From: Candidatus Nanosynbacter sp. BB002
Lineage (GTDB): Bacteria; Patescibacteriota; Saccharimonadia; Saccharimonadales; Saccharimonadaceae
Assembly (NCBI RefSeq): GCF_037013405.1
Contig: NZ_CP146064.1
Coordinates: 600,001 to 632,000, forward strand
DNA: 32,000 bases
Reading direction: 5' to 3'
This document shows, piece by piece, positions 17,618 through 32,000 of this stretch. The position numbers were made by a program, and so were the translations under genes. Position 1 is the first letter of the stretch, and the number at the start of each line of letters is the position of its first letter. Below the pieces are notes generated by a model. It did no database searches and was not told where the DNA came from. It saw nothing but the letters and a program-made list of their open reading frames with translations.

Positions 17618-18442
17618 TTACCATCTATCGCCCTCCTCTACTGGCATATTTTTTGACGTATCAATACAACCTTTTATCTCATTAATTGATGACAACTTAT
17701 CTCTATTACAATATTCTCTTGAAATAAGCTTGCCATTCTTCGATAAGTATATATTTACAGATATATCTTTAGGGCTCACTCCCACGTTTTTCGCATGCTC
17801 CATCATCTCGTGTATGCCACTAGCAAAACGACTCTCGTCTTTAATGTCACCATCATACTTAAAATTTAATCCATAAGCTAAATTGCCACGCTGCCCGACT
17901 TTATTTTCAGCCAAAAACACCTCCTCAAAAGTTGGTTTTTTCAGAGTGAAAGTACGCTCTACGTCTGGATCTATTACGCCTAGTCTAACTTTGACATCAA
18001 CGGGCATGTCTTTAAATATTTCTCTAACTTTGGGTTGAATTTTGGCAGTTTGTTCTTTTTGCCAAGTTCTTACTACATAGTCGTCGCTGTACTTCGTCTG
18101 GTTATCCACCCGAGAAATATGTATCTTTATACTTTTATCTGATTTAGGGTAGGCGTTCGCAGACCATACGCAAGAGATACCAAAAGCACCGCCATCGCAA
18201 CTAGGTTTTTCTACATCAAAATCTTGATTGTATTTGTTTTTTAGATAGCTAGTTATATTAGCCTGCTCGGTCGTATCACTAACCGAACGTTTATTAATTT
18301 CTCTATCTACTATAATTCCACCTACGATATACACTACCGTCATTATCACAACTATCGACGACAGAATAATTAAAATAACTCGCCGGGCTTTTTTATTATT
18401 TATGCGTGATTTGTTAGTCCTTTTGCTTTTACTCTTCGCCAT
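17618..18442 (-). CDS. Island paralog 1: Lys-rich N-tail + single TM + extracytoplasmic domain, unknown family
   Basis: 274 aa. The order is MAKSKSKRTNKSR..., then TM VILIILSSIVVIMTVVYIVGGIIV, then the conserved block ITSYLKNKYNQDFDVEKPSCDGGAFG...ANAYPKSDKSIKI shared with 18583-19311 and 20123-20884. AAGAGG lies upstream of the ATG. Local sequence is AT-rich. Confidence 0.75.
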   Translation of the reverse strand: MAKSKSKRTNKSRINNKKARRVILIILSSIVVIMTVVYIVGGIIVDREINKRSVSDTTEQANITSYLKNKYNQDFDVEKPSCDGGAFGISCVWSANAYPKSDKSIKIHISRVDNQTKYSDDYVVRTWQKEQTAKIQPKVREIFKDMPVDVKVRLGVIDPDVERTFTLKKPTFEEVFLAENKVGQRGNLAYGLNFKYDGDIKDESRFASGIHEMMEHAKNVGVSPKDISVNIYLSKNGKLISREYCNRDKLSSINEIKGCIDTSKNMPVEEGDRW

Positions 18443-18582
18443 ACAATACAGCCTCTTATTGCTTAGTTATTTATGATTTTATTTAAACATAGGCATGATA
18501 CAACATGCTAGTGGTCTTATCTGTAAAAGCAACTCTGAGGTTGGTAATTGCTTTGAAATTAGTATCAGATATTCTAGAGTGT

Positions 18583-19311
18583 TTAATCTCCCATCTTAAC
18601 AATGCACGACTCTATATCGTCTTTACTGCCCAATTTATTTTTATTAAAAAATATTTCGCATCTTATTTTAGAGTTATTGTTCCTGTTTACGTCTACATCT
18701 ACACTATACACACCCTCTTCTCTTAGTTTCTCTACAATCTTAAATATGTAAGAAGCCTTTTTGCTGTCGTTCGGAGCGTCTATTATTAATCTATACAGGA
18801 AGCCTTTGTCCTTGGTTTTATTGTCTTCATATTTAGATTGTTTATTCACAGAATCTACCAAATCTTCAGATAAGACAATTTCTGCCCGTGCACTATCTGC
18901 TTTATAGCCATTGCTATTAGCGTTAACTTCTTTGACAATAGATTCTAACTCCCTGCTGGCTTGGACTGACCAGATGGCGGCGATGTATTGGTCGCTACAG
19001 TCAGAGGGGTTCAAATAGCTGCAATCGATGTCAAATTTTAGTTTTGGGTTTGACACTAGGTATGCTTGCGACATCCATATACCGTTGACCCCAAAACCTC
19101 CGTGTTTATACTCGGGTCTTTCGACCTTAAAGTCTTCTTTATATTTATTGTTCAGATACTCAGACATCCCATTCTGGGCATTAGATATTTTATTTTCATT
19201 TTTGATATGTAAGACAATCGCTATGGCAACAATCAATATAACCAGGCTACAGAGGGCTATCAATAATTTGTATACTTTATGCTTCTTTGTCTTACTGACT
19301 TTCTTTGCCAT
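18583..19311 (-). CDS. Island paralog 2: Lys-rich N-tail + single TM + extracytoplasmic domain
   Basis: 242 aa from ATG 19311 (the ORF track uses GTG 19314). GGAGG lies 5 nt upstream. The shared block is NAQNGMSEYLNNKYKEDFKVERPEYKHGGFG...SQAYLVSNPKLKF. Confidence 0.75.
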   Translation of the reverse strand: MAKKVSKTKKHKVYKLLIALCSLVILIVAIAIVLHIKNENKISNAQNGMSEYLNNKYKEDFKVERPEYKHGGFGVNGIWMSQAYLVSNPKLKFDIDCSYLNPSDCSDQYIAAIWSVQASRELESIVKEVNANSNGYKADSARAEIVLSEDLVDSVNKQSKYEDNKTKDKGFLYRLIIDAPNDSKKASYIFKIVEKLREEGVYSVDVDVNRNNNSKIRCEIFFNKNKLGSKDDIESCIVKMGD

Positions 19312-19488
19312 CACCCCCTCCGGTTACTTTATAGATTATTTATTATTTTAGTTTAAGCACGACCCATACACAAGAGAGCGCTGCTATACAATCCTAGGTT
19401 ATAGGCTGTGAAGTTTCACCTTCCAGGAGCAGATAGGGTTAGCCCCTTTCTTAAAGGCAGAGAGCTAAATATCTGATGAATCAAAACC

Positions 19489-19923
19489 TCAGAGGCTATT
19501 CAGCTGATTAATAGATCCGACTACTGAGGCAATACCCCATACTGTCCCATTCATATAAATTATTTCTTGATAGGCCTCAGGATCTCCTAAGTCGTAGCCA
19601 CAATGCTGTAGTTCATATTTACCGTCGTATATCTTTCTGCCACATAAGTCTGGTTTGCCGATAAGCTCCTCGACCGTATCCCTATCCATGCCGATCTGGA
19701 CGTCGCTCATCTTCTTATAGAACTCGTCCTTAGTTGACCAAGGCCTACTGTTAGTATCGGAGCTAGCATTAGTATCAGAGACAGTATTAGGGCGAGGAGT
19801 GTGCTGCTGTAGATATAGGATTGTTACGACTCCAGCGGTAAAGCATATAGCTACGTAAACTAGCACAATAGCCACAAGCTTAATTAACTTTTTATCTTTA
19901 TAAGGATAACCGTTGTTTACCAT
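19489..19923 (-). CDS. Small membrane-anchored protein with a BamE/SmpA_OmlA-like (DUF3862-like) C-terminal domain
   Basis: 144 aa. The TM is LVAIVLVYVAICFTAGVVTILYL, followed by a Ser/Thr/Asn linker. Next comes MSDVQIGMDRDTVEELIGKP, the I.xGMxxxxVxxxxGxP motif typical of that fold. TAGAAT lies 6 nt upstream of the ATG. Confidence 0.65.
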   Translation of the reverse strand: MVNNGYPYKDKKLIKLVAIVLVYVAICFTAGVVTILYLQQHTPRPNTVSDTNASSDTNSRPWSTKDEFYKKMSDVQIGMDRDTVEELIGKPDLCGRKIYDGKYELQHCGYDLGDPEAYQEIIYMNGTVWGIASVVGSINQLNSL

Positions 19924-20005
19924 AAGCTTATTCTATTACGTTATGCTGGACAGTTCAATCTACTTGAATATCTAGAAATAGTTGGAAGCTCACCAGGTTT
20001 TTTAT

Positions 20006-20047
20006 TTACGCGCGTTTTTTCGTTCTTTTGCTTTTACTCTTCGCCGT
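20006..20047 (-). pseudogene. 5' relic of a fourth island paralog (start codon ATG->ACG, stop after 13 codons)
   Basis: A 21-nt exact match, cttttgcttttactcttcgcc, occurs at 20025-20045 and at 18420-18440 (the first codons of paralog 1). The relic reads ACG GCG AAG AGT AAA AGC AAA AGA ACG AAA AAA CGC GCG TAA (TAKSKSKRTKKRA*), against MAKSKSKRTNKSR in paralog 1. The upstream leader is also similar (GTATTACAC vs GTATTGTAT). Confidence 0.55.
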
Positions 20048-20122
20048 GTAATACATATCTCAGGCTTTTGATGTCTTTACACGGTAAGGTACTCAGCGCT
20101 AAATATTGTTCTGGTGTTAAAC

Positions 20123-20884
20123 TCATGTTGCTACAACCTCCCATCTCTTAAACATATTAACTATAGTGCTCTTATCCAAAGTCTTTAGTTTTTCAAGCGA
20201 GATAATTAAACCATGCTTTTCACGGCCATATTCTGCTGACTTATACGTAATGGTGGTATCTGTTTTTGCAGGCAGTTCACTAGTGAGTAGAAGTAGCTTA
20301 TTAACCGCTGCCATTTTTTCTTGAGTAGATAGATCTCTATTACGCAACTCAGATATGATAATATCGTACGGTATTTGCTTACCGTATCGATCGGCCGCAT
20401 CATTAAATAAAGGTACTTTGCCACTAATGCTAATGTCTCTCGTCTGTACACTCATTGAAGACTGAATGTCAATCTCATACTGCACTCTCTCGCCAAACAC
20501 CTTATTAATTACGGGCTGAAGTCGTTTACGCTCCTCACTAGTCCACACGGCACCGGCATAACCATCGCTAACACCTGACGATGATGACATGACGGTAAAG
20601 CGAATGGTTTTATCATCTTTTGGATATGCAATAGCATCAAAATGCCCCTCAACCGCAAGACCACCGCCCTTATGTTCTGGCTTTTCGACCACAAATTCTT
20701 GCCTATACTTATTTTGCAGATATTCCTTCATTTCAGCCTGAGCATTAGCGACATCAAGCTGGAATTTAATATAAAAACCGCCGACAATCATTGCTACCAA
20801 GATTAGCGGCGTGGCGAATAGTAGTAATACTTTGCGTGGTTTGACTGCATTAGTCTTGCTCAATTTGGATTGTTTCTTAGACAT
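20123..20884 (-). CDS. Island paralog 3: Lys-rich N-tail + single TM + extracytoplasmic domain
   Basis: 253 aa. The order is MSKKQSKLSKTN..., then TM VLLLFATPLILVAMIVGGFYI, then ANAQAEMKEYLQNKYRQEFVVEKPEHKGGGLAV...AIAYPKDDKTIRF. Confidence 0.75.
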   Translation of the reverse strand: MSKKQSKLSKTNAVKPRKVLLLFATPLILVAMIVGGFYIKFQLDVANAQAEMKEYLQNKYRQEFVVEKPEHKGGGLAVEGHFDAIAYPKDDKTIRFTVMSSSSGVSDGYAGAVWTSEERKRLQPVINKVFGERVQYEIDIQSSMSVQTRDISISGKVPLFNDAADRYGKQIPYDIIISELRNRDLSTQEKMAAVNKLLLLTSELPAKTDTTITYKSAEYGREKHGLIISLEKLKTLDKSTIVNMFKRWEVVAT

Positions 20885-20996: not shown

Positions 20997-21071
20997 TGGT
21001 GACCTTACCGGGAATCGAACCCGGATTGCCAGGATGAAAACCTGGTGTCCTAACCGTTAGACGATAAGGCC
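20997..21071 (-). tRNA. tRNA-Glu (anticodon UUC), CCA encoded
   Basis: The reverse complement folds as GGCCTTA TC GTCT AACGGTTA GGAC A CCAGG TTTTCAT CCTGG CAAT CCGGG TTCGATT CCCGG TAAGGTC A CCA. It is a 75-nt cloverleaf with all stems paired. Confidence 0.93.
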
Positions 21072-23943: not shown

Positions 23944-23954
23944 AATGAGTCTGC

Positions 23955-23983
23955 TTGAGTACAGGTATCAGCTATGGTATAAT
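23955..23983 (+). promoter_or_regulatory. Sigma-70-type promoter of the tRNA-His/tRNA-Lys unit
   Basis: -35 TTGAGT (23955-23960), 17-nt spacer, then TGg + TATAAT (23978-23983). The tRNA starts at 24001. Confidence 0.65.
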
Positions 23984-24000
23984 GCTAGAAGCTTGCGTAT

Positions 24001-24078
24001 GGCGGATGTAGCTCAGTTGGTTAGAGCGCTGGATTGTGGCTCCGGAGGCCGTGGGTTCGACCCCCATCATTCGCCCCA
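24001..24078 (+). tRNA. tRNA-His (anticodon GUG) with genome-encoded G-1 and CCA
   Basis: Fold is G(-1) GCGGATG TA GCTC AGTTGGTTA GAGC G CTGGA TTGTGGC TCCGG AGGCC GTGGG TTCGACC CCCAT CATTCGC C CCA. G-1 lies opposite C73, as expected for bacterial tRNA-His. Confidence 0.93.
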
Positions 24079-24120
24079 AGCATTGATTTGTGACATAATA
24101 TGTGCTAAAATCACACGTAT

Positions 24121-24197
24121 GGGCCAGTAGCTCAGCTGGTTAGAGCACCTGCCTCTTAAGCAGGGTGTCGAGGGTTCGAGCCCCTCCTGGCCCTCCA
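24121..24197 (+). tRNA. tRNA-Lys (anticodon CUU), CCA encoded
   Basis: Fold is GGGCCAG TA GCTC AGCTGGTTA GAGC A CCTGC CTCTTAA GCAGG GTGTC GAGGG TTCGAGC CCCTC CTGGCCC T CCA. Confidence 0.95.
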
Positions 24198-24203
24198 AAA
24201 TAA

Positions 24204-24231
24204 CCTCACACGCGTGTGAGGATTTTATTTT
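24204..24231. terminator. Bidirectional rho-independent terminator
   Basis: Perfect hairpin cctcaca-cgcg-tgtgagg (24204-24221). It is followed by attttatttt on the plus strand. On the minus strand it is followed by TTATTTT (reverse complement of aaaataa). Confidence 0.7.
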
Positions 24232-24675
24232 GCTATGCATATGGGTTATACCGACGGGAAGGCGGTTCGTGAAATGATGACCTTGGTCTGTTGAGTCCCA
24301 TCGGGCGAGCATTGGTGTTTGAAGATTGCCGATTCGGCCTATCTGTTTCAGCCTTGGCAGTATGCGGTTTTCTGTTTGAAAGACTCTGCTCTGCCGACTG
24401 CTTGGATTTATGATCATACCCCGAAGCTACAACCCCCAATTCCATGCCAAAGCGACGCACATGCCCATGGCAGCTAGCCATGGCAGAGCTTTGATAATTA
24501 TTGATGTATTGGCGATCTGAATTTGCCCGATGTTTTCTGTTGATGCTTCGTCCCGTATGTCCGTACGCCGTAAAACCGTCAATCGACCCTCGTCGAGGAT
24601 CAGATAGTCTCATCATCAGTTCTCGAGACATGCGTGGTTTTCGACTCGCATCCATATTTGATACTCGTAATCCTA

Positions 24676-24752
24676 TGGCGCCCCGAGTAGGATTCGAACC
24701 TACGACCTTAGGCTTAGAAGTCCTCTGCTCTATCCAGCTGAGCTATCAGGGC
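24676..24752 (-). tRNA. tRNA-Arg (anticodon UCU), CCA encoded, anticodon stem with two non-Watson-Crick pairs
   Basis: The reverse complement folds as GCCCTGA TA GCTC AGCTGGATA GAGC A GAGGA CTTCTAA GCCTA AGGTC GTAGG TTCGAAT CCTAC TCGGGGC G CCA. The acceptor, D and T arms are good. The anticodon stem has G27.A43 and A31.G39 mismatches. Confidence 0.85.
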
Positions 24753-24755
24753 GTA

Positions 24756-24784
24756 TTCACATTATAGCATCTTTCTGCTACAAT
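24756..24784 (+). promoter_or_regulatory. Sigma-70-type promoter of tRNA-Gly (and probably the downstream phosphorylase gene)
   Basis: -35 TTCACA (24756-24761), 17-nt spacer, then TGc + TACAAT (24779-24784). The tRNA starts at 24796. It overlaps the divergent tRNA-Arg promoter. Confidence 0.55.
24761..24769 (-). promoter_or_regulatory. Extended -10 box TGcTATAAT, 8 nt upstream of the tRNA-Arg 5' end
   Basis: The reverse complement of 24761-24769 is TGCTATAAT. It is followed by GTGAATAC and then G1 of the tRNA (24752). Confidence 0.5.
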
Positions 24785-24795
24785 GATACAAGCTT

Positions 24796-24870
24796 GCGGG
24801 TGTAGTACAGCGGTTAGTATGCAAGTTTTCCAAACTTGAGATCGGAGTTCGATTCTCCGCACCCGCACCA
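24796..24870 (+). tRNA. tRNA-Gly (anticodon UCC), CCA encoded
   Basis: Fold is GCGGGTG TA GTAC AGCGGTTA GTAT G CAAGT TTTCCAA ACTTG AGAT CGGAG TTCGATT CTCCG CACCCGC A CCA. Confidence 0.95.
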
Positions 24871-24903: not shown

Positions 24904-26661
24904 ATGGATCCATATTTTTACACAGAGAAACCAAAATACCGACCACACGACATCGAAGATGCCTCTGAATTTTATGACATCATTGAGCGCAGTAGTCTGA
25001 CTCATCAACTGTCTGACTCCAGGCCGTACATCTACTGGACGATGGAAATTTACGACAAAGCCAATGGCATCAAAGGTGGCGGCGGTTTGGGCGTGCTGGC
25101 AGCAGACACACGGCGGGTGGCCGAAAAATTAGACGTGCCGTTTGTGGTAGTCACGCCATTTTACCGCAGCGAATCACACCAAAAAATTACCAACCTCGAG
25201 CAGGAAGAATTTTCAGAAACTGTCTCACCACAAGACTATGGTTTTGAGTACATTGACGACGTGTCCGTCAGCTCACGCGGTTTTCCTGACGCCAGTTTGA
25301 GCATCTTCAAAAAGGCACTTGGTTCGACGCAGTTTGTCACCATCTCAGAGCCAAACTTTGGACAATTGTACGAAGGTGAAGGCTCGGGCGATCACCGACT
25401 CTACCAAGAAGTGGCCCTCGGGTTTGGCGGCTATAAAGCCCTGAAACTGCTCGGCATCAAGCCGGCCGTCATCCAGCTCAACGAAACCGCAACCATTTTT
25501 GCAGCATTGGCTCGACTGGACGAACTATGTGCCAACGGCATGAACCTGTACGAAGCAATCGTTTACGTACGCAAACACACACTCTATACCAACCACACGC
25601 TGCTCCAAGCGGCTGAACCAGAATTTCACCGCTCACAATTTGAAAAATTAGTGCTGCCAAATCTCAAAAGCAACGCCGTGCGCTGCTGGCTGATGGAACA
25701 ATTTCGTAATGATCGCTTGCGGCCAAACTTGTTGGCAATTGAGCTAACCGAAGCCAAAAATGGTGTCAGCAAACTGCACGCCCGAGTGGCAAATTTCCGC
25801 GACCGCAACAACGACAAAGTCAAATTCCACGCCATCACCAACGGCATCGACCTGGAAACATGGGTGCTACCGGAAATCATGCAACTCTATAGCGAGAGCG
25901 GGATTATCGATAAGTTTGGGCTGCCAACAGATAATTTCCATGCCAAAATTGATACGTTAACTGCGTCAGACCTCCGCGCCATGCACCGCGCTGGTCGCGC
26001 CGCTTTAAACCGTGTGCTAGAGCACCGCAAAGATCAATACAACCATCCTGTGCAAATACCAGAAAATGCACTGTTGTTTGATTTCAAACGACGCTTTGCG
26101 AACTATAAGCGGCCGTACATGCCGTTCACCAACCCTAAAGCGCTAAGGCAAATTTTGGTTGATTATAACGCGCACTACATTTTGGCGGGAAAAGTCCACC
26201 AAGGCGACACTGTGATGTATCAACGGCTGCTTGAAATTTTACAATTGGTAGACGCTGACCCGATCTTAAAAGAGCGCGTTCACTACATCCAAGATTATGA
26301 CGAGGAGCTGGGCCGGGCGCTGGCAGTTGGTTCAAACATCGCTATCAACGTACCAGAAGTTGGCTGGGAGGCTTGCGGTACCTCATGGGAAAAAGATATT
26401 GCCAATCTCAAATTGCTCATTTCCACCAGCGATGGCGGCGTGGCAGATATCAAGCCAATAGCCTGCCTGGAAGTTAGTGGCAAAAACTACGACGAAGAAG
26501 TTCGTTCACTGTATCTCAATATACACAAAGCCGCACGCATCATGCAAAATGATTCACTGCTGGAAAAACTAACTCATCGCCAGCTCAAAGCGTACCTGCC
26601 GATCATCTCTGGCGCACGCATGATGAAAGATTATCTCCACTTTTTGTTCCCAAAGCGGTGA
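24904..26661 (+). CDS. Alpha-glucan (glycogen/maltodextrin) phosphorylase family protein, short GT35 form
   Basis: 585 aa. Motifs are GGGGLGVLAADTRR (canonical GGLGxLAGD), GVSKLHA, ITNGID, AGKVHQGD and a PLP-Lys region EACGTSWEKD (canonical EASGTSGMK). Confidence 0.82.
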   Translation: MDPYFYTEKPKYRPHDIEDASEFYDIIERSSLTHQLSDSRPYIYWTMEIYDKANGIKGGGGLGVLAADTRRVAEKLDVPFVVVTPFYRSESHQKITNLEQEEFSETVSPQDYGFEYIDDVSVSSRGFPDASLSIFKKALGSTQFVTISEPNFGQLYEGEGSGDHRLYQEVALGFGGYKALKLLGIKPAVIQLNETATIFAALARLDELCANGMNLYEAIVYVRKHTLYTNHTLLQAAEPEFHRSQFEKLVLPNLKSNAVRCWLMEQFRNDRLRPNLLAIELTEAKNGVSKLHARVANFRDRNNDKVKFHAITNGIDLETWVLPEIMQLYSESGIIDKFGLPTDNFHAKIDTLTASDLRAMHRAGRAALNRVLEHRKDQYNHPVQIPENALLFDFKRRFANYKRPYMPFTNPKALRQILVDYNAHYILAGKVHQGDTVMYQRLLEILQLVDADPILKERVHYIQDYDEELGRALAVGSNIAINVPEVGWEACGTSWEKDIANLKLLISTSDGGVADIKPIACLEVSGKNYDEEVRSLYLNIHKAARIMQNDSLLEKLTHRQLKAYLPIISGARMMKDYLHFLFPKR

Positions 26662-26665
26662 GATG

Positions 26666-28189
26666 TTATTCGTTGATGACTTCAACTTGCGCACCCAAGC
26701 GATTCAGGCGCTGAGCCAGATCTTCGTAACCACGGTTGATGGAGTACACGTCGCGCAAGGTTGATTGGCCTGGTGCTGCCAACATCGCCAAAAAGACGAC
26801 AACACTTGGTCGAAGTGCCGGTGGCGCGATGACGTCGGCTGGTTTCCAATTGGTCGGACCGCTGATATACACTCGGTGTGGATCGACCAGCTCAATTTGT
26901 GCATTCAGTTTGCTTAGTTCGGTAAAATAAATTGCTCGATTTTCATAACTCCAGTCATGCACCAAGGTCCTACCTTCAGCCATGGTAGCGATGAGCCCTA
27001 AGAACGGTAAATTATCCATATTAATCCCCGGAAACGGCAGCGCGTGAATCTTGTCCTTTGGCGCAACCAGCTTGGAGTGTTTCAGCGCGATGTCCACCAA
27101 ACGAGTACGGCCATTGTCGGCTGGGTATTCCTCGCTCAACTCGTACCGCAAGCCCATTTCAGCCAAGGTTGCTAGCTCAATTTCCAAAAATTCAATTGGC
27201 GCTCGGCGCACTATGATCTCCGAATCAGTCACCACGGCTGCCGCGATGAAGCTCATAGCCTCAATCGGGTCTTCAGACGGTGCGTATTCAACAGGTTGGT
27301 TGATCGATTTTTTACCGGTGATGGTCAACGTAGTAGTGCCGATGCCTTCTATCTTCACGCCTAATTTTTCCAAGTAGAAACAAACGTCCTGCACCATGTA
27401 GTTTGGGCTGGCGTTGCGGATGATGGTCTTGGTTGGTGACAGTGCCGCTGCCATGATGAGGTTTTCAGTCACCGTGTCACCACGTTCAGTCAGAACAATA
27501 GTGTGATCACCTGTCGTGGCATCAACTGTCGCGTGATAGCTGTCTGGTTCCGCCTCTACGTGCATCCCAAAGTGCTTCAGGCCTGACAAGTGCGGTTCTA
27601 CGGTGCGCTTACCGAGATTACAGCCACCAGCAAATGGCAAACGAAAGTCATGATATTGATGCAGCAGTGGACCGAGAAACATTAGTACAGTGCGGGTGCG
27701 CTTGGCAGCTGCGATATCCATGTCTTCTAGCCTCAGCCGAGCTGGCGGCGTGATTTCCAAGTCATTACCTGCTAGCCACCGTGTTTTGACACCGATGGAA
27801 TTAAGCACTTCGATGATGCGGTTGACCTCTTCGATGCGCGACACCCGCCTCAGTGTCGTTTTACCTTTGTTGAGTAAACTGGCGCACAGCAAAGCCACTG
27901 CGGCATTTTTACTTGTTTTGACGTCGATACTACCAGATAGTTTGTGTCCACCCGAGACACGGAAATTAATCTTGCCGGTTTTGTTAAGCAACATAATATT
28001 ATGGCTCAATACCTCCGAGATGCGCGACAACATTTCAAGACTCAAGTTTTGTTTACCGCTTTCAATACGATTGATTGCACTCTGAGACGTTCCCAAAGCA
28101 TCGGCTAATTGGGCCTGTGTCAGATTTTTTCGTTGACGATTTTCCGCAATGAGCGTACCGATCTTTTGGATGTATCGATCTGTATTCAT
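26666..28189 (-). CDS. murA: Fusion protein: N-terminal XRE-type HTH domain + full-length UDP-N-acetylglucosamine 1-carboxyvinyltransferase (MurA)
   Basis: Residues ~15-65 (RKNLTQAQLADALGTSQSAINRIESGKQNLSLEMLSRISEVL) are a classic XRE HTH. The remainder aligns end to end with MurA. It has VKTSKNAA (the K22 position), PFAGGCNLGKRTVEPHLSGL (E. coli PGGCTIGARPVDLHISGL, catalytic Cys kept) and the C-terminus YSINRGYEDLAQRLNRLGAQVE. Confidence 0.88.
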   Translation of the reverse strand: MNTDRYIQKIGTLIAENRQRKNLTQAQLADALGTSQSAINRIESGKQNLSLEMLSRISEVLSHNIMLLNKTGKINFRVSGGHKLSGSIDVKTSKNAAVALLCASLLNKGKTTLRRVSRIEEVNRIIEVLNSIGVKTRWLAGNDLEITPPARLRLEDMDIAAAKRTRTVLMFLGPLLHQYHDFRLPFAGGCNLGKRTVEPHLSGLKHFGMHVEAEPDSYHATVDATTGDHTIVLTERGDTVTENLIMAAALSPTKTIIRNASPNYMVQDVCFYLEKLGVKIEGIGTTTLTITGKKSINQPVEYAPSEDPIEAMSFIAAAVVTDSEIIVRRAPIEFLEIELATLAEMGLRYELSEEYPADNGRTRLVDIALKHSKLVAPKDKIHALPFPGINMDNLPFLGLIATMAEGRTLVHDWSYENRAIYFTELSKLNAQIELVDPHRVYISGPTNWKPADVIAPPALRPSVVVFLAMLAAPGQSTLRDVYSINRGYEDLAQRLNRLGAQVEVINE

Positions 28190-28195
28190 GCCGGC

Positions 28196-28204
28196 AGTAT
28201 ATCA
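28196..28204 (-). promoter_or_regulatory. Extended -10 box TGaTATACT, 6 nt upstream of the HTH-murA ATG 28189
   Basis: The reverse complement of 28196-28204 is TGATATACT. It is followed by GCCGGC and then ATG, with no SD. It overlaps the palindrome TATATCA-N4-TGATATA (28198-28215). Confidence 0.45.
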
Positions 28205-28225
28205 CAAATGATATAATAGTACAAA

Positions 28226-28234
28226 TGGTATAAT
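28226..28234 (+). promoter_or_regulatory. Extended -10 box TGgTATAAT for glyA (leadered; SD AGGAGA at 28245-28250)
   Basis: tggtataat is followed 10 nt later by aggaga, then 7 nt, then ATG 28258. A second TGaTATAAT lies at 28209-28217. Confidence 0.55.
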
Positions 28235-28257
28235 GAGGTCATATAGGAGAAATTGAC

Positions 28258-29526
28258 ATGAAAGATCAAGCAATTGAACGACTCATCACTGCGGAAATTG
28301 AGCGACAGCAAGCAGGGCTAGAGCTCATCCCCAGCGAAAACTACGTTTCACCAGACGTGCTCAAGGCGCTCGGCAGCGTATTTACCAACAAATATTCTGA
28401 GGGTTATCCTGGCCGACGATACTATGGCGGGCAGCATAACACCGATCAAATTGAGCAGTTGGCGATTGACCGTGCCAAGCAATTATTCGGCGCTGATCAT
28501 GCCAATGTCCAGCCGCACTCTGGCGCCCAAGCCAACGAGGCCGTATATTATGCGTGGTGTGAGCCAGGCGACACCATCCTGGCGATGGATTTGGCGCACG
28601 GCGGACACCTGACGCATGGCGCACCAGTCACCCGCTCGGCCCGTGAGTATAATTTCGTCCGCTATGGTATCAAGGATGTCGAAACTGGCGAAATTGACTA
28701 TGAAGAAATTCGCCGTTTGGCGCTAGAATATCGGCCAAAGATCATCTTGGCAGGCTTTTCGGCTTATCCGCGGGAGCTAGATTACGCCAAGTTTACCGAG
28801 ATTGGCAACGAAGTTGGCGCTATGTTGATGGCGGATATGAGCCACATCGCTGGATTAATTGTCGGCGGCGTAGCTAAAAATCCGTTTGACTATGGCTTTC
28901 ACGTTATCACCACTACCACACACAAAACCCTGCGCGGTCCGCGCGGTGGTTTGATCTTGTCAAAAGGCGTCGTTGGCAATCCGTTGAAGCGACCAGAAAA
29001 AACTTTGGAAAACCTGCCAACGCTCATCGACCGGGCAGTCTTCCCTGGCACTCAAGGTGGTCCGCATATGCATACCATCGCTGCCAAAGCGGTGGCTTTT
29101 GGTGAGGCACTGCGTCCAGAGTTTGCAGCGTACGCCCAGCAAATCGTAAAGAATGCGGCCGTGCTGGCAGATGAGCTGAAACGCGGCGGCTTGAAATTGG
29201 TAACAGGTGGCACCAGTAACCACTTGGTGCTGGCAGATGTTTATGGCAGCTTCGGCATTGACGGTAAAACCGCTCAGGAGCGACTGGAGGCCAGCGGCAT
29301 CACCGCCAACGCCAATGCCATCCCGAATGACACCCTGCCGCCTTTCCGTCCAAGTGGTTTACGGCTTGGCACACCAGCAGTGACAACACGCGGCATGACA
29401 GAGGCGGAGATTAAGCAGATTGCTGAGCTGATTATTGCAGCAATTCAGACCGATGACCCGAATGTCCATGCTGAACTCAAACAAAAAACTGGGTCTTTAG
29501 CGAAGAGTTTTCCGCTTCCTTACTAG
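28258..29526 (+). CDS. glyA: Serine hydroxymethyltransferase
   Basis: 422 aa. Motifs are LELIPSENYVS, the GYPGRRYYGG region and the PLP-Lys motif VITTTTHKTLRGPRGG. Confidence 0.96.
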   Translation: MKDQAIERLITAEIERQQAGLELIPSENYVSPDVLKALGSVFTNKYSEGYPGRRYYGGQHNTDQIEQLAIDRAKQLFGADHANVQPHSGAQANEAVYYAWCEPGDTILAMDLAHGGHLTHGAPVTRSAREYNFVRYGIKDVETGEIDYEEIRRLALEYRPKIILAGFSAYPRELDYAKFTEIGNEVGAMLMADMSHIAGLIVGGVAKNPFDYGFHVITTTTHKTLRGPRGGLILSKGVVGNPLKRPEKTLENLPTLIDRAVFPGTQGGPHMHTIAAKAVAFGEALRPEFAAYAQQIVKNAAVLADELKRGGLKLVTGGTSNHLVLADVYGSFGIDGKTAQERLEASGITANANAIPNDTLPPFRPSGLRLGTPAVTTRGMTEAEIKQIAELIIAAIQTDDPNVHAELKQKTGSLAKSFPLPY

Positions 29527-29588: not shown

Positions 29589-30017
29589 CTAACATTTACC
29601 AGTAGTAATGCTCTTTACACCAGCAGGATCGTTGTTACCAGCAACTTGCTTGTAGTACTCAACTTTGACACCAGAAGGTTTACCACCGTCCTGACATACC
29701 GTGTACTTGTATTTGTCGTGGTCAGTGTTTGGGTCAGCTGTTGCACTAACCTTGGTTGTATCAGCAGCTGCACCGCTTAGTTTGACAGTCTCAAATGTGA
29801 GAAGGTCTGAGTGTGCAGGCCACGCGTCTTTCTCTGAGTTGTAAGATGCTGCTGCGTTGACGAGGTTGCGTGCGTTTGATTGACGTTCGTCGTCACGTGC
29901 TTTTTGTGTCACACCGTTGTAGGCAACGATTGAGATTGCTGCCAAAATCGCGATAACAACGATCACGATCAAGAGCTCAACAAGTGTGAAACCTTTAGTT
30001 TTGTTTGAAGAAATCAT
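29589..30017 (-). CDS. Type IV pilin (probable major pilin), prepilin N-terminal cleavage/methylation motif
   Basis: 142 aa. The leader MISSNKTKG is followed by FTLVELLIVIVVIAILAAISIVAYNG (G|FTLxE class III signal). A C-terminal Cys pair (C...GKC) is consistent with a D-region disulfide. It has its own promoter and SD-like GGGGG. Confidence 0.88.
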   Translation of the reverse strand: MISSNKTKGFTLVELLIVIVVIAILAAISIVAYNGVTQKARDDERQSNARNLVNAAASYNSEKDAWPAHSDLLTFETVKLSGAAADTTKVSATADPNTDHDKYKYTVCQDGGKPSGVKVEYYKQVAGNNDPAGVKSITTGKC

Positions 30018-30061
30018 TTCTGATTTGCCCCCTATTTTTGGTTAAGTTATTAACAATTTTG

Positions 30062-30090
30062 ATTGTATCAGAGCGGTTTTAAAAACACAA
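30062..30090 (-). promoter_or_regulatory. Candidate promoter of the major pilin gene
   Basis: On the minus strand: TTGTGT (30085-30090), 17-nt spacer, TGa + TACAAT (30062-30067). That gives a ~45-nt leader to ATG 30017. Confidence 0.5.
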
Positions 30091-30098
30091 GCATTTTA

Positions 30099-30749
30099 TC
30101 ATTGTGCGTTGAGTGACCTGGCATACATGATGCCAGTGTAGCTGATTTCACTACCTGCAACTTGGCGTTTAGCGGTCAATTTAATCCTGACAGCGCTCGG
30201 TTCAGAACTGGAAATATTGATATAATCAATCTGTAAATCAGTTGCAGAATTTGACGACATCACGGTTTCTGTCTTTGGACGCTGCCAGGTATTTGGCGAC
30301 GTTTGGCACGCATTCATGGAAACTTTTCTCATGAGCTTTGAGCCGGAGACTGAATACTCCAGGTTGTATGACAAGGCTTCTTCGAGAAGTAGCCCAGCGC
30401 TCGCCACTGAACAATCCTTTTTAACCAGCCGCCGGTCGGTTGCTAGCGGGTTTTTATTGGTGACAAAATTATTGGTACTTAGCGCAAATGATGAATCAGG
30501 ATTGATAACCAGACTAGTGCGCACATCTTCTTCCATACGGTCCAGTACAGCCTGCACTTCGTTTTGTAGCTGAGAACGAGCAGTCGTGCGCATGGACTCC
30601 GTCGTCAAACTGATGACGATGCCGACGATACCCGCCAAAATGATGATCACCAGTGGCGATATCACCAACATCTCCACCAGCGTAAACCCGCGCTGATACT
30701 TACTGTGAGACATAGACCGCATGAGAAACTTCCTTTGCTGGATTGTCAT
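30099..30749 (-). CDS. Prepilin-type minor pilin / pseudopilin
   Basis: The motif is ...SKYQRG|FTLVEMLVISPLVIIILAGIVGIV. The true start is probably an internal ATG (30722 or 30713), giving a short basic leader. It overlaps the end of the upstream pilin gene. Confidence 0.8.
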   Translation of the reverse strand: MTIQQRKFLMRSMSHSKYQRGFTLVEMLVISPLVIIILAGIVGIVISLTTESMRTTARSQLQNEVQAVLDRMEEDVRTSLVINPDSSFALSTNNFVTNKNPLATDRRLVKKDCSVASAGLLLEEALSYNLEYSVSGSKLMRKVSMNACQTSPNTWQRPKTETVMSSNSATDLQIDYINISSSEPSAVRIKLTAKRQVAGSEISYTGIMYARSLNAQ

Positions 30750-31074
30750 ACTTGGCAGTGGCCGTCACGCGCATCACGCCAACGTTTGGCTGAACACGGC
30801 AACGCTTGAGCGTGATATTTACCGTTCCGAGCAGCGCATTGTTACGAGTGATGGTCTGTTCAGGGTGAGATGAACCAAAACAGAGTTGCGATATCTCTTG
30901 ATAGGTGCCTTCAGACCGCAGCACTTCGTACGCCAAAGTGCTAGCCTCCGATAATTTGCGGGCATCGCTACCGCGAAACACTACCACCTGGTACAGCTGG
31001 TAGCCACTGATGATAAAAAGTGATGCAACAAACAATGTAATCATCAGCTCAACAACCGTAAAACCTTTTTTCAT
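30700..31074 (-). CDS. Prepilin-type minor pilin / pseudopilin
   Basis: The start is set at MKKG|FTVVELMITLFVASLFIISG (ATG 31074). It shares one nucleotide with the upstream stop (TGATG). The ORF track extends 9 codons further upstream. Confidence 0.8.
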   Translation of the reverse strand: MKKGFTVVELMITLFVASLFIISGYQLYQVVVFRGSDARKLSEASTLAYEVLRSEGTYQEISQLCFGSSHPEQTITRNNALLGTVNITLKRCRVQPNVGVMRVTATAKYDNPAKEVSHAVYVSQ

Positions 31075-31664
31075 CACCGGCTTTTCTCCACTATTTTCCA
31101 CTCAAGGGGCTGCCCCTCGAGATGATACATGATGATATAGCCCTGACATTCGTCAGTCAAGGTGATACAGCGGTTGCCTGAACGGTTGATAGCAAAATAC
31201 GCGTACGCACCGTTGGCGTAACCTGATGGTTTATGAGTATTGTAGTCGCTCGTATACGACATCAGCATTGAACGATTTAGTGGGGTCGAGTGTGATCCAT
31301 ACTGCAAAACACCAGCGGAGACAAACTTCTCTCCTGGCAGCGGACCCTTCTTTGCAGCATCTGGTAGTTCGGAAAATATTTGATCGAAAAGTGCGTCAGT
31401 CATGGCGCTACCGCCCGCACCATTGACCGCATGCGCTGGATAGCTACCAGCAGATTTGATGATATTGTTTGACGAGTCGCGCAGTTCGCGAGGATATAAT
31501 GATTCTAGATAATTTTGAATGGTCGTGATATCACCCTCACGCGTTTTGTCACGAGTTGAAACTTGATATGACCGAAAACTAACGGTACCGATGGCTAGTA
31601 AAATAGCCATGATAGCCATCACGATAATCACTTCCACAACCGTGAAACCAGTTCGTCGACTCAT
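31074..31664 (-). CDS. Prepilin-type minor pilin / pseudopilin
   Basis: 196 aa, beginning MSRRTG|FTVVEVIIVMAIMAILLAIGTVSF. Confidence 0.82.
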   Translation of the reverse strand: MSRRTGFTVVEVIIVMAIMAILLAIGTVSFRSYQVSTRDKTREGDITTIQNYLESLYPRELRDSSNNIIKSAGSYPAHAVNGAGGSAMTDALFDQIFSELPDAAKKGPLPGEKFVSAGVLQYGSHSTPLNRSMLMSYTSDYNTHKPSGYANGAYAYFAINRSGNRCITLTDECQGYIIMYHLEGQPLEWKIVEKSR

Positions 31665-31701: not shown

Positions 31702-32000
31702 CTATAATTCTAATGGCTCTTGCTCAATGCGGACGTGAAATTGATCATACACTGCCTGGATGATGGCTTGGCGAGCAGATTCGAGGTCATGATAGGTTGC
31801 GGCATGAGGATTGGTCAGTACTAACGCGTTTTTGTCATGAATTTTCATGTTGTGAAGCTCTTTGCCGCGGAAGCCCGCTTGATCGATCAGCCAACCAGTC
31901 GGAATTTTATAAGTCCCATCTGGCATAGCGTAGTTTGGCACATCAGGGTGAGTTTGACGAATCGCATCCAGCATCTCTTGACTGACCATGGCATTCTTAA
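31702..32000 (-). CDS. murB: UDP-N-acetylenolpyruvoylglucosamine reductase, C-terminal fragment (continues past the right edge)
   Basis: HPDVPNYAMPDGTYKIPTGWLIDQAGFRGKE...ALVLTN matches the MurB C-terminus (E. coli [29 protein letters not shown]...ALVLIN). The frame stays open upstream of the ORF-track Met, through to position 32000. Confidence 0.8.
   Translation of the reverse strand, partial: KNAMVSQEMLDAIRQTHPDVPNYAMPDGTYKIPTGWLIDQAGFRGKELHNMKIHDKNALVLTNPHAATYHDLESARQAIIQAVYDQFHVRIEQEPLEL

Follow-up and report, generated by a model that had tools for sequence, protein, structure and literature searches.

Architecture of the fusion gene and its surroundings

The 32,000-nucleotide stretch of Candidatus Nanosynbacter sp. 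BB002 DNA analysed here (contig NZ_CP146064.1, positions 600,001 to 632,000 of the forward strand; hereafter the window) contains a gene in which MurA, the UDP-N-acetylglucosamine (UDP-GlcNAc) enolpyruvyl transferase, is joined in frame to an N-terminal helix-turn-helix (HTH) domain of the XRE family. The genes around the fusion are housekeeping genes and type IV pilins, and a palindrome, O1, lies directly upstream of it, in the region that separates it from the divergent glyA gene (Table 1). The evidence gathered below suggests that the fused protein is an active enzyme that represses its own promoter through this palindrome.

An earlier interpretation made from the letters alone (the sequence-only reading) had described an XRE-type HTH joined by a short linker to a complete MurA, with murB nearby, and the domain scans bear this out. 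The HTH region passes profile detection as HTH_3 (PF01381, residues 14-61, E = 8.6e-15, 55 bits against a cutoff of 23) and also scores 38.5 against a cutoff of 27 for PF13560, and EPSP_synthase (PF00275) is matched at residues 79-495 along the full profile (positions 2-417 of 417, E = 3.1e-45). The AlphaFold2 (AF2) model of the fusion, with a predicted local distance difference test score (pLDDT) of 91.2 and a predicted template modelling score of 0.83, folds the HTH as a bundle of four helices (residues 3-20, 25-32, 36-43 and 51-61; pLDDT about 87-94), that is, as the HTH_3-type helical domain of XRE/Cro-C1-type regulators. The linker is much less well defined, with a pLDDT that averages 63 over residues 61-70 and falls below 50 at residues 68-71. 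Residues 36-43, the presumed recognition helix, sit within the family-wide motif TSQSAINRIE.G.QN, which is kept in the consensus sequences of both groups of bacteria that are compared below, the Saccharibacteria and the Actinomycetota, and the region around it is near-identical between them (GTSQSAINRIE versus GTSQSAVNRIE).

Table 1. Features of the HTH-MurA locus in the window, and of loci in other genomes (prefix L) to which the text refers.
Feature	Position	Strand	Basis or remark
HTH-MurA fusion coding sequence, 507 residues plus stop, ATG start	26666..28189	-	open reading frame list, Pfam and NCBIfam matches
XRE-family HTH domain, residues 1-61	28007..28189	-	HTH_3 match and AF2 helices
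Flexible linker, residues 62-73	27971..28006	-	AF2: no secondary structure, low confidence
MurA domain, residues 74-507 (C-terminal 434 residues)	26666..27970	-	EPSP_synthase, NF006873, 5u4h, 1uae, residues kept
Codon of Cys190 (E. coli MurA Cys115, catalytic-loop cysteine, fosfomycin target)	27620..27622	-	alignments; ACA on +, TGT on -, Gly-Gly before
O1, perfect palindrome ATATCA-CAAA-TGATAT, 9 nt before murA start	28199..28214	.	candidate site for the fused HTH as a dimer
Extended -10-like element TGATATACT of murA, 6 nt before ATG	28196..28204	-	sequence reading; overlaps right arm of O1
Degenerate second copy of 17-nt unit (ATAGTACAAATGGTATA), carries TGGTATAAT on + strand	28216..28232	.	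direct repeat D1, 82% identical, spacing 17
O2, internal site, HTH codons 48-53	28032..28047	-	degenerate here: ACTTGAGTCTTGAAAT, 8/12 by manual count
glyA (serine hydroxymethyltransferase)	28258-29526	+	divergent from murA
murB, MurB_C domain	31702-31989	-	about 3.5 kb from the fusion
Dead HTH-MurA-like gene, L085	5001-6503		protein P0168
Dead HTH-MurA-like gene, L087	5001-6530		protein P0186
Dead HTH-MurA-like gene, L086	5001-6467		protein P0225
Dead HTH-MurA-like gene, L004	8001-9554		protein P0182
Stand-alone MurA beside dead fusion, L085	3624-4940	-	
Stand-alone MurA beside dead fusion, L087	3558-4916	-	
Extra actinomycete palindromes	L057 2168, L058 2279, L059 2310, L065 2242, L071 2209, L073 284, L084 938; L069/L073/L077/L082 upstream		

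The enzyme part is a divergent MurA

The enzyme part is to be regarded as a divergent MurA, because it lies above the cutoff of the NCBIfam MurA subfamily model NF006873 (328 bits against 297) yet below that of the strict MurA equivalog TIGR01072 (308 against 392.7); its score for NF009470 is likewise below the cutoff (220 against 552). Among solved structures, the best matches are without exception MurA (5u4h, E = 4.6e-56; the E. coli enzyme 1uae, E = 1.5e-44), and Foldseek places the MurA part on 1uae with a target-normalised template modelling score of 0.93 and a root-mean-square deviation of 2.0 Å. The reference sequence of E. coli MurA used for the alignment of individual residues was checked for its length and landmark residues.

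Canonical MurA, as represented by the E. coli and Enterobacter cloacae enzymes (PDB 1uae), and the fusion share the two-domain fold and nine catalytic or substrate-binding residues. These are K22, N23, R91, C115, R120, D305, R331, R371 and R397 of the E. coli enzyme, which correspond to K94, N95, R166, C190, R195, D392, R418, R460 and R486 of the fusion, so that the retention of K22 and of the catalytic Cys, Asp and Arg positions that had been read from the sequence holds for all nine residues tested. The two proteins differ in that they are only about 31% identical in pairwise alignment, and in that the fusion has small insertions, belongs to a distinct subclade and carries Ala or Pro in place of D369 (APPALR for ATDLR), a loss that is common to the whole subclade, unfused members included. 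To our knowledge, canonical MurA never bears an N-terminal HTH.

The active-site residues are intact in the Saccharibacteria orthologues too, in the one actinomycete representative tested (P0152), and in 19 of 20 sampled fusions from other Patescibacteria, which are 52-57% identical to the window protein. The MurA part of the fusion looks catalytically competent on these grounds.

Distribution and evolution of the fusion

A genome scan that took one genome per species found at least 597 stretches encoding a relative of the window protein. Among the best 80 of these, which were examined, nearly all cover the query from about residue 1 to 507, the exceptions being truncated at a contig end; Saccharibacteria account for about 50, at 64-99% identity, and Actinomycetota for about 30, at 62-66%. 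The actinobacterial carriers (L054-L084 and L003) include Streptomyces (S. rimosus among them), Kitasatospora, Nonomuraea, Actinacidiphila, Knoellia, Actinopolymorpha, Longispora and Lapillicoccus. The best 120 homologue clusters listed all combine the HTH with EPSP_synthase, nearly all of them at 507-525 residues and one at 482, and the Nonomuraea cluster has 246 members. Proteins 98-99% identical are found on many independent assemblies, and a locus 99% identical is present in a metagenome-assembled genome of Candidatus Saccharibacteria (L005). A search from a distant member of the family returned 1881 clusters at E<=1e-20, and the best 120 of those are again all HTH plus EPSP_synthase proteins of about 500-530 residues, with named sources in Paceibacterota/Parcubacteria, Doudnabacteria and others.

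A sequencing or assembly frameshift that joined two separate genes is excluded by this record, since the same continuous open reading frame recurs in two phyla, in hundreds of independent assemblies that include complete genomes. The sequence-only reading was right that the fusion is real; it needs correction in that the fusion is no peculiarity of this genome and belongs to a family that is very large, visible in the databases and uncharacterised. The databases name its members 'UDP-N-acetylglucosamine 1-carboxyvinyltransferase' or 'helix-turn-helix domain-containing protein', and no description of an HTH-MurA fusion was found in the literature searched.

Neighbour-joining trees built on the enzyme part place every fused protein in a single MurA subclade, which also has a few unfused members and stands apart from canonical MurA. 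With bootstrapping, the actinomycete fusions are monophyletic in 300/300 trees and group with the Saccharibacteria in 296/300, and fusions from other Patescibacteria fall outside this joint group; the Saccharibacteria without the actinomycete fusions are monophyletic in only 33/300. The actinobacterial loci have no conserved gene context, their neighbours varying among integrase, beta-lactamase-family, DUF1648 and FadB-like genes, and the Nonomuraea fusion gene adjoins a phage-type integrase. Taken from the neighbour-joining trees alone, the simplest reading would be a single transfer from a Saccharibacteria-like lineage to the Actinomycetota, which would be of note because cultivated Saccharibacteria are described as living on actinobacterial hosts (PMC12369343). 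The HTH and linker used as a query gave 31 matches, mostly contig-end fragments of the fusion, and did not reveal the origin of the domain; no complete stand-alone HTH protein comes closer than about 40% identity.

A conserved palindrome upstream of the fused genes

The murA-glyA intergenic region (28190-28257) holds O1, which is the sole match without mismatch in the window; the two-mismatch matches are promoter-like or coding, for instance at the tRNA-His promoter (23965) and at a pilin start (30011). Operator sites were scored over the 12 arm positions of ATMTCA-N4-TGAKAT, a site being counted at 10/12 or better, in the upstream regions of 78 fused loci (48 from Saccharibacteria and 30 from Actinomycetota). 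Such a site is present in 47/48 Saccharibacteria loci, where it ends 4-14 nucleotides (mostly 9-12) before the start codon, and in 29/30 actinobacterial loci, where it ends 11-13 nucleotides before the start; correcting the start of the L058 gene makes the latter 30/30 and the two groups together 77/78. The background is 114 such matches in about 469,000 other positions, or about 1e-4 per position, and most of these are the internal site O2 that is described below. Fusions from other Patescibacteria have 12/12 sites 7-9 nucleotides before the ATG codon. Four MurA genes of this subclade that lack the fusion serve as a negative control; their best upstream match reaches only 6-8/12, and there is no operator.

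The arms of the operator carry close to 2 bits per position, and the 4-nucleotide spacer is variable and holds little information. The centres of the half-sites are 10 bp apart, a spacing that fits an HTH dimer because one helical turn is expected between half-sites; what lies at the promoter is, in other words, a predicted palindromic operator of the kind that the fused HTH would recognise. The consensus changes from TATATCA-N4-TGATATA in Saccharibacteria to ATCTCA-N4-TGAGAT(A) in Actinomycetota, symmetrically in both arms. Actinomycete upstream regions contain further recurring palindromes, ATCTCGATGTCGAGAT (operator-like, with G at arm position 6) and TTGTTCGCATAGTAGTAGAACAA, whose positions are given in Table 1.

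One alternative is that the palindrome is a promoter feature, namely a pair of back-to-back extended -10 boxes that belong to divergent promoters, or the site of some other regulator, and that the HTH serves for instance in nucleoid tethering or non-specific DNA binding. In the window this has some appeal, as both arms read TGATATA(A/C)T on their own strands, glyA is divergent, and a similar TGGTATAAT precedes tRNA-His. However, the palindrome is just as well conserved at loci without a divergent upstream gene, and it is also conserved in actinomycete DNA of about 70% GC, where it is not promoter-like on both strands and the left arm does not resemble a -10 box. It follows the HTH into unrelated gene contexts and is missing at the unfused genes of the subfamily. 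No factor other than the fused HTH is shared by all of these loci. The promoter explanation is unlikely, and the actinomycete form of the palindrome, the many loci without a divergent gene and the unfused controls without a site together argue that the palindrome exists for the fused HTH.

Direct transcriptional autoregulation, one of three roles proposed in the sequence-only reading, has gained strong comparative support: a 16-bp operator stands at the gene's own promoter in two phyla, is absent upstream of unfused relatives, and is present upstream of fused relatives that are catalytically dead (see below).

Promoters and a second, internal site

Upstream of the murA ATG codon, TGATATACT is followed by no Shine-Dalgarno sequence. 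The orthologue promoters have the arrangement TTGACA-17 nt-TATxxT-6 nt-ATG, and those of Actinomycetota TACGGT-6 nt-ATG. These arrangements are suggestive of a leaderless murA transcript, with the operator lying over its promoter. The consensus promoter scan does not report the TGATATACT promoter, giving instead ATGACC-18-TATTAT (28242-28213, minus strand), of which the -10 likewise overlaps O1. Because O1 overlaps either candidate -10, a protein predicted to sit at O1 would occlude RNA polymerase.

The 17-nucleotide unit that contains O1 is tandemly duplicated (28199-28234). On the plus strand, TGATATAAT and TGGTATAAT are likely to be glyA promoters, with TGGTATAAT as a -10 element, and binding of HTH-MurA could therefore affect glyA too. 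The divergent glyA arrangement is kept in only some Saccharibacteria.

In most orthologues (L006-L084) a second site, O2, forms a good palindrome, ATATCAGyCTTGAGAT or ACATCAGCCTTGAGAT, at about +143 (locus position about 2643), inside the codons of the peptide NISLEM and 166-170 bp from O1. Selection on O2 is argued only from the choice of codons. The Leu codon is CTT in 18/29 actinobacterial genes, as against 0.7% elsewhere in the same genes, and the Ser codon is AGY in 24/29 actinomycete and 40/41 Saccharibacteria genes, as against about 45-52% elsewhere. O2 is accordingly listed as a candidate auxiliary operator or looping site.

Catalytically dead relatives

CATALYTICALLY dead relatives of the fusion exist: seven distant fused representatives and P0320 lack C115, R91 and R120, and often more (P0168, P0172, P0181, P0182, P0186, P0201, P0225 and P0320). 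Their HTH domains are 46-59% identical to that of the window protein and their enzyme parts 30-36%. Of the four loci that were examined, L085 and L087 have the dead fusion divergent from a stand-alone murA-murB pair, with ddl and a Mur ligase gene downstream of it in L085 and a Mur ligase gene in L087. In L086 it comes after murB and relA/spoT, and in L004 it is the last gene of an operon of a NUDIX gene and a sugar nucleotidyltransferase (NTP_transferase) gene. The operator is present at the promoters of the dead paralogues, at 12/12 in L085 and L086 and 10/12 in L087, and in L004 sites of 11/12 precede the NUDIX and nucleotidyltransferase genes. As the dead paralogues retain both the HTH and the operator in mur contexts, DNA binding would appear to be the constant of the family, tied to genes for peptidoglycan precursors.

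The stand-alone MurAs of L085 and L087 keep K22, N23, R91, C115, R120, D305 and R397, with Gly at R331 and Gln at R371, and are only 26-28% identical to the window protein, thus representing another divergent MurA type. Where such a separate MurA exists, the fused copy is presumably a pure regulator with the MurA-fold domain as its sensor, and the window protein appears to represent the state in which the two functions are undivided. For at least some of the dead relatives the name MurA is probably a mis-annotation, since public sources give it to close relatives of the dead proteins. A separate and apparent re-use of the MurA fold is P0211 (1204 residues), in which a MurA-like domain without the K22-N23 motif (745-1199) follows an uncharacterised N-terminal region of about 740 residues.

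The split seen in these relatives, where dead HTH-MurA-like proteins stand beside a separate murA-murB pair, raises the question of whether the window protein is itself mainly or only a transcription factor, its MurA part sensing a ligand and catalysis being left to a stand-alone MurA elsewhere. That the protein scores below the TIGR01072 cutoff and has no D369 would agree with such a role. On the other side, the nine other catalytic and substrate-binding residues are intact here and across the Saccharibacteria, the MurA part is 82-87% identical between genera and at least as conserved as the HTH, and the fused copy is visibly decayed where a separate MurA exists. Saccharibacteria genomes are, moreover, smaller than 1 Mb (for instance CP039997.1, 839.6 kb), and the sources that name the protein call it MurA, UDP-GlcNAc 1-carboxyvinyltransferase. 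It is improbable that the window protein serves mainly or only as a regulator.

An enzyme that would repress its own promoter

From the above, we infer enzyme activity, DNA binding, repression, leaderless transcription and ligand control, which can be assembled into a working model. The C-terminal MurA domain would transfer enolpyruvate from phosphoenolpyruvate (PEP) to UDP-GlcNAc, the first committed step of peptidoglycan synthesis, and the N-terminal HTH, held on a flexible linker of about 12 residues, would bind ATATCA-N4-TGATAT as a dimer. The palindrome overlaps the core promoter of the gene, such that the enzyme would repress its own transcription, and negative autoregulation of this kind would keep the concentration of MurA constant. 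For the core of this model, in which an active MurA uses an XRE-type HTH dimer at O1 to repress its own promoter, we would put the probability at roughly 0.7.

Less certain is a further step in which UDP-GlcNAc, PEP or the feedback ligand UDP-N-acetylmuramic acid (UDP-MurNAc), bound to the MurA domain, alters dimerisation or affinity for DNA, by which expression would track the demand for precursors. These three ligands drive the open-to-closed change of MurA, and the enzyme closes on UDP-GlcNAc and binds UDP-MurNAc tightly. Ligand control is attractive for this reason, and because the dead paralogues look like sensors; substrate-responsive regulation through the MurA domain, which the sequence-only reading had also entertained, is thus plausible as a putative extra step.

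Several observations weigh against the autorepressor model. MurA is generally monomeric, and the AF2 model, which covers a single chain, has no confident contact between the HTH and MurA that could pass on a ligand signal. Full catalytic competence is not guaranteed, given that D369 is not conserved and the TIGR01072 cutoff is missed. In the AT-rich Saccharibacteria, the arms of the operator double as extended -10 motifs (TGATATAAT) on either strand, and part of the arm conservation could for that reason be promoter conservation. The locus counts are also inflated by shared ancestry, with unique sites numbering 39 and 29. As for O2, it is degenerate in the window, and shuffling of synonymous codons indicates that its score comes mostly from the conserved peptide NISLEM (observed 10.3 versus 9.0, and 9.6 versus 8.8).

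A more far-reaching reading joins these elements, and we regard it as less likely than not. Here, HTH-MurA would be a self-contained homeostat of precursor flux, ancestral to much of Patescibacteria, in which the ligand-driven transition between open and closed MurA gates dimerisation of the HTH on O1 and/or O2 (about 167 bp apart, and possibly looped), and occupancy sets transcription. Duplication would repeatedly have divided its two roles between one copy that is purely an enzyme and another, with the MurA fold, that purely senses and regulates mur genes, and one transfer would have carried the gene from an episymbiont lineage resembling Saccharibacteria to its actinobacterial hosts.

Comparison with known systems

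Judged from sequence, the fusion belongs with the bifunctional enzyme-repressors, in which an intact active site is combined with a DNA-binding domain that acts on the protein's own promoter, and it represents a widespread yet uncharacterised arrangement of this kind. The closest functional analogy is BirA, a biotin protein ligase with an N-terminal winged-HTH repressor domain and a palindromic operator at which it represses the operon of its pathway, and in which binding of the enzyme's ligand controls dimerisation and DNA binding. Both BirA and HTH-MurA are single polypeptides with an N-terminal DNA-binding domain, a C-terminal active (here predicted) enzyme and a palindromic operator. They differ in that BirA has a winged helix rather than an XRE domain, has an unrelated enzyme fold, and regulates the bio genes and not its own gene; ligand control is known for BirA, whereas for HTH-MurA it is hypothesised.

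PutA and NadR, which have been termed 'trigger enzymes', are active enzymes that carry a DNA-binding domain at the N-terminus and adjust the expression of their own pathway to the availability of substrate. The fusion resembles them in joining a metabolic enzyme to an N-terminal DNA-binding domain, with other DNA-binding folds (ribbon-helix-helix in PutA) and other enzymes being used in these cases, and PutA switches by membrane association, a switch that is neither known nor predicted for HTH-MurA. The dead HTH-MurA-like paralogues fit the pattern of regulators of the MocR/GabR and NrtR type, since they keep the fold, HTH and operator and have lost the residues of catalysis. The sensor domains of those regulators are often inactive, whereas the window HTH-MurA keeps its active site. 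We know of no case in which the EPSP synthase/MurA fold is the effector domain of a regulator.

A different use of the HTH is exemplified by RodZ, which, like the fusion, has an XRE-type HTH on a protein related to the cell wall, and in which this HTH binds MreB. The sequence-only reading had offered protein-protein contacts as one possible role, by which the HTH would localise MurA or regulate it post-translationally, and one Paceibacterota fusion is indeed divergent from an operon with mreB. However, the recognition helix carries a nearly invariant motif that is characteristic of DNA-binding XRE proteins, and a matching palindromic operator co-evolves with the HTH, which contacts between proteins would leave unexplained. 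RodZ has no operator; the fused HTH, accompanied as it is by a conserved palindrome, points to DNA binding, and a RodZ-like role is very unlikely.

Other features of the window

Four type IV pilin-like genes with N-terminal prepilin methylation motifs (29589-31664, minus strand) lie between glyA and murB, and the related complete genome CP039997.1 (L001) has the same arrangement. At its other end, murA converges with a gene for a 585-residue phosphorylase-like protein (24904-26661, plus strand), the stop codons being 4 nucleotides apart (26659-26668). No room for a terminator hairpin was seen in this 4-nucleotide gap, where no terminator scan was made. The match of the phosphorylase-like protein to the Pfam Phosphorylase model is confined to the middle of the profile (312-625 of 713).

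Between folD and this gene lie four tRNA genes (His, Lys, Arg and Gly; 24002-24870), a tRNA-Glu gene being found at 20997-21071. Several listed open reading frames in 23945-24767 are surely spurious, because they overlap the tRNA genes. The tRNA-His promoter GTATCAGCTATGGTATAAT (23965-23983) resembles an operator half-site. The region 17618-20884 has a GC content of 0.38, compared with about 0.49 elsewhere, and may be acquired or lineage-specific DNA; its open reading frames at 17618-18442, 18583-19314 and 20123-20884 have no Pfam matches.

Implications for MurA and the Saccharibacteria

MurA is the target of fosfomycin and a control point of cell-wall synthesis, and the known ways of regulating it are feedback inhibition and post-translational control, the latter by ClpCP/ReoM/IreB in Firmicutes. 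A MurA with its own repressor domain would, if true, be a new and very economical design, in which one gene and one operator suffice without a separate regulator, and such a design would suit sub-megabase genomes with few transcription factors. The dead paralogues suggest in addition that evolution can turn the MurA fold into a sensor domain, many proteins of this sort being now annotated as MurA, and the actinomycete fusions represent a candidate case in which a gene has passed between episymbiotic Saccharibacteria and the actinobacteria that host them. Saccharibacteria are now genetically tractable and Streptomyces is easily handled, and the fused HTH and its palindrome would provide a testable operator-protein pair for both.

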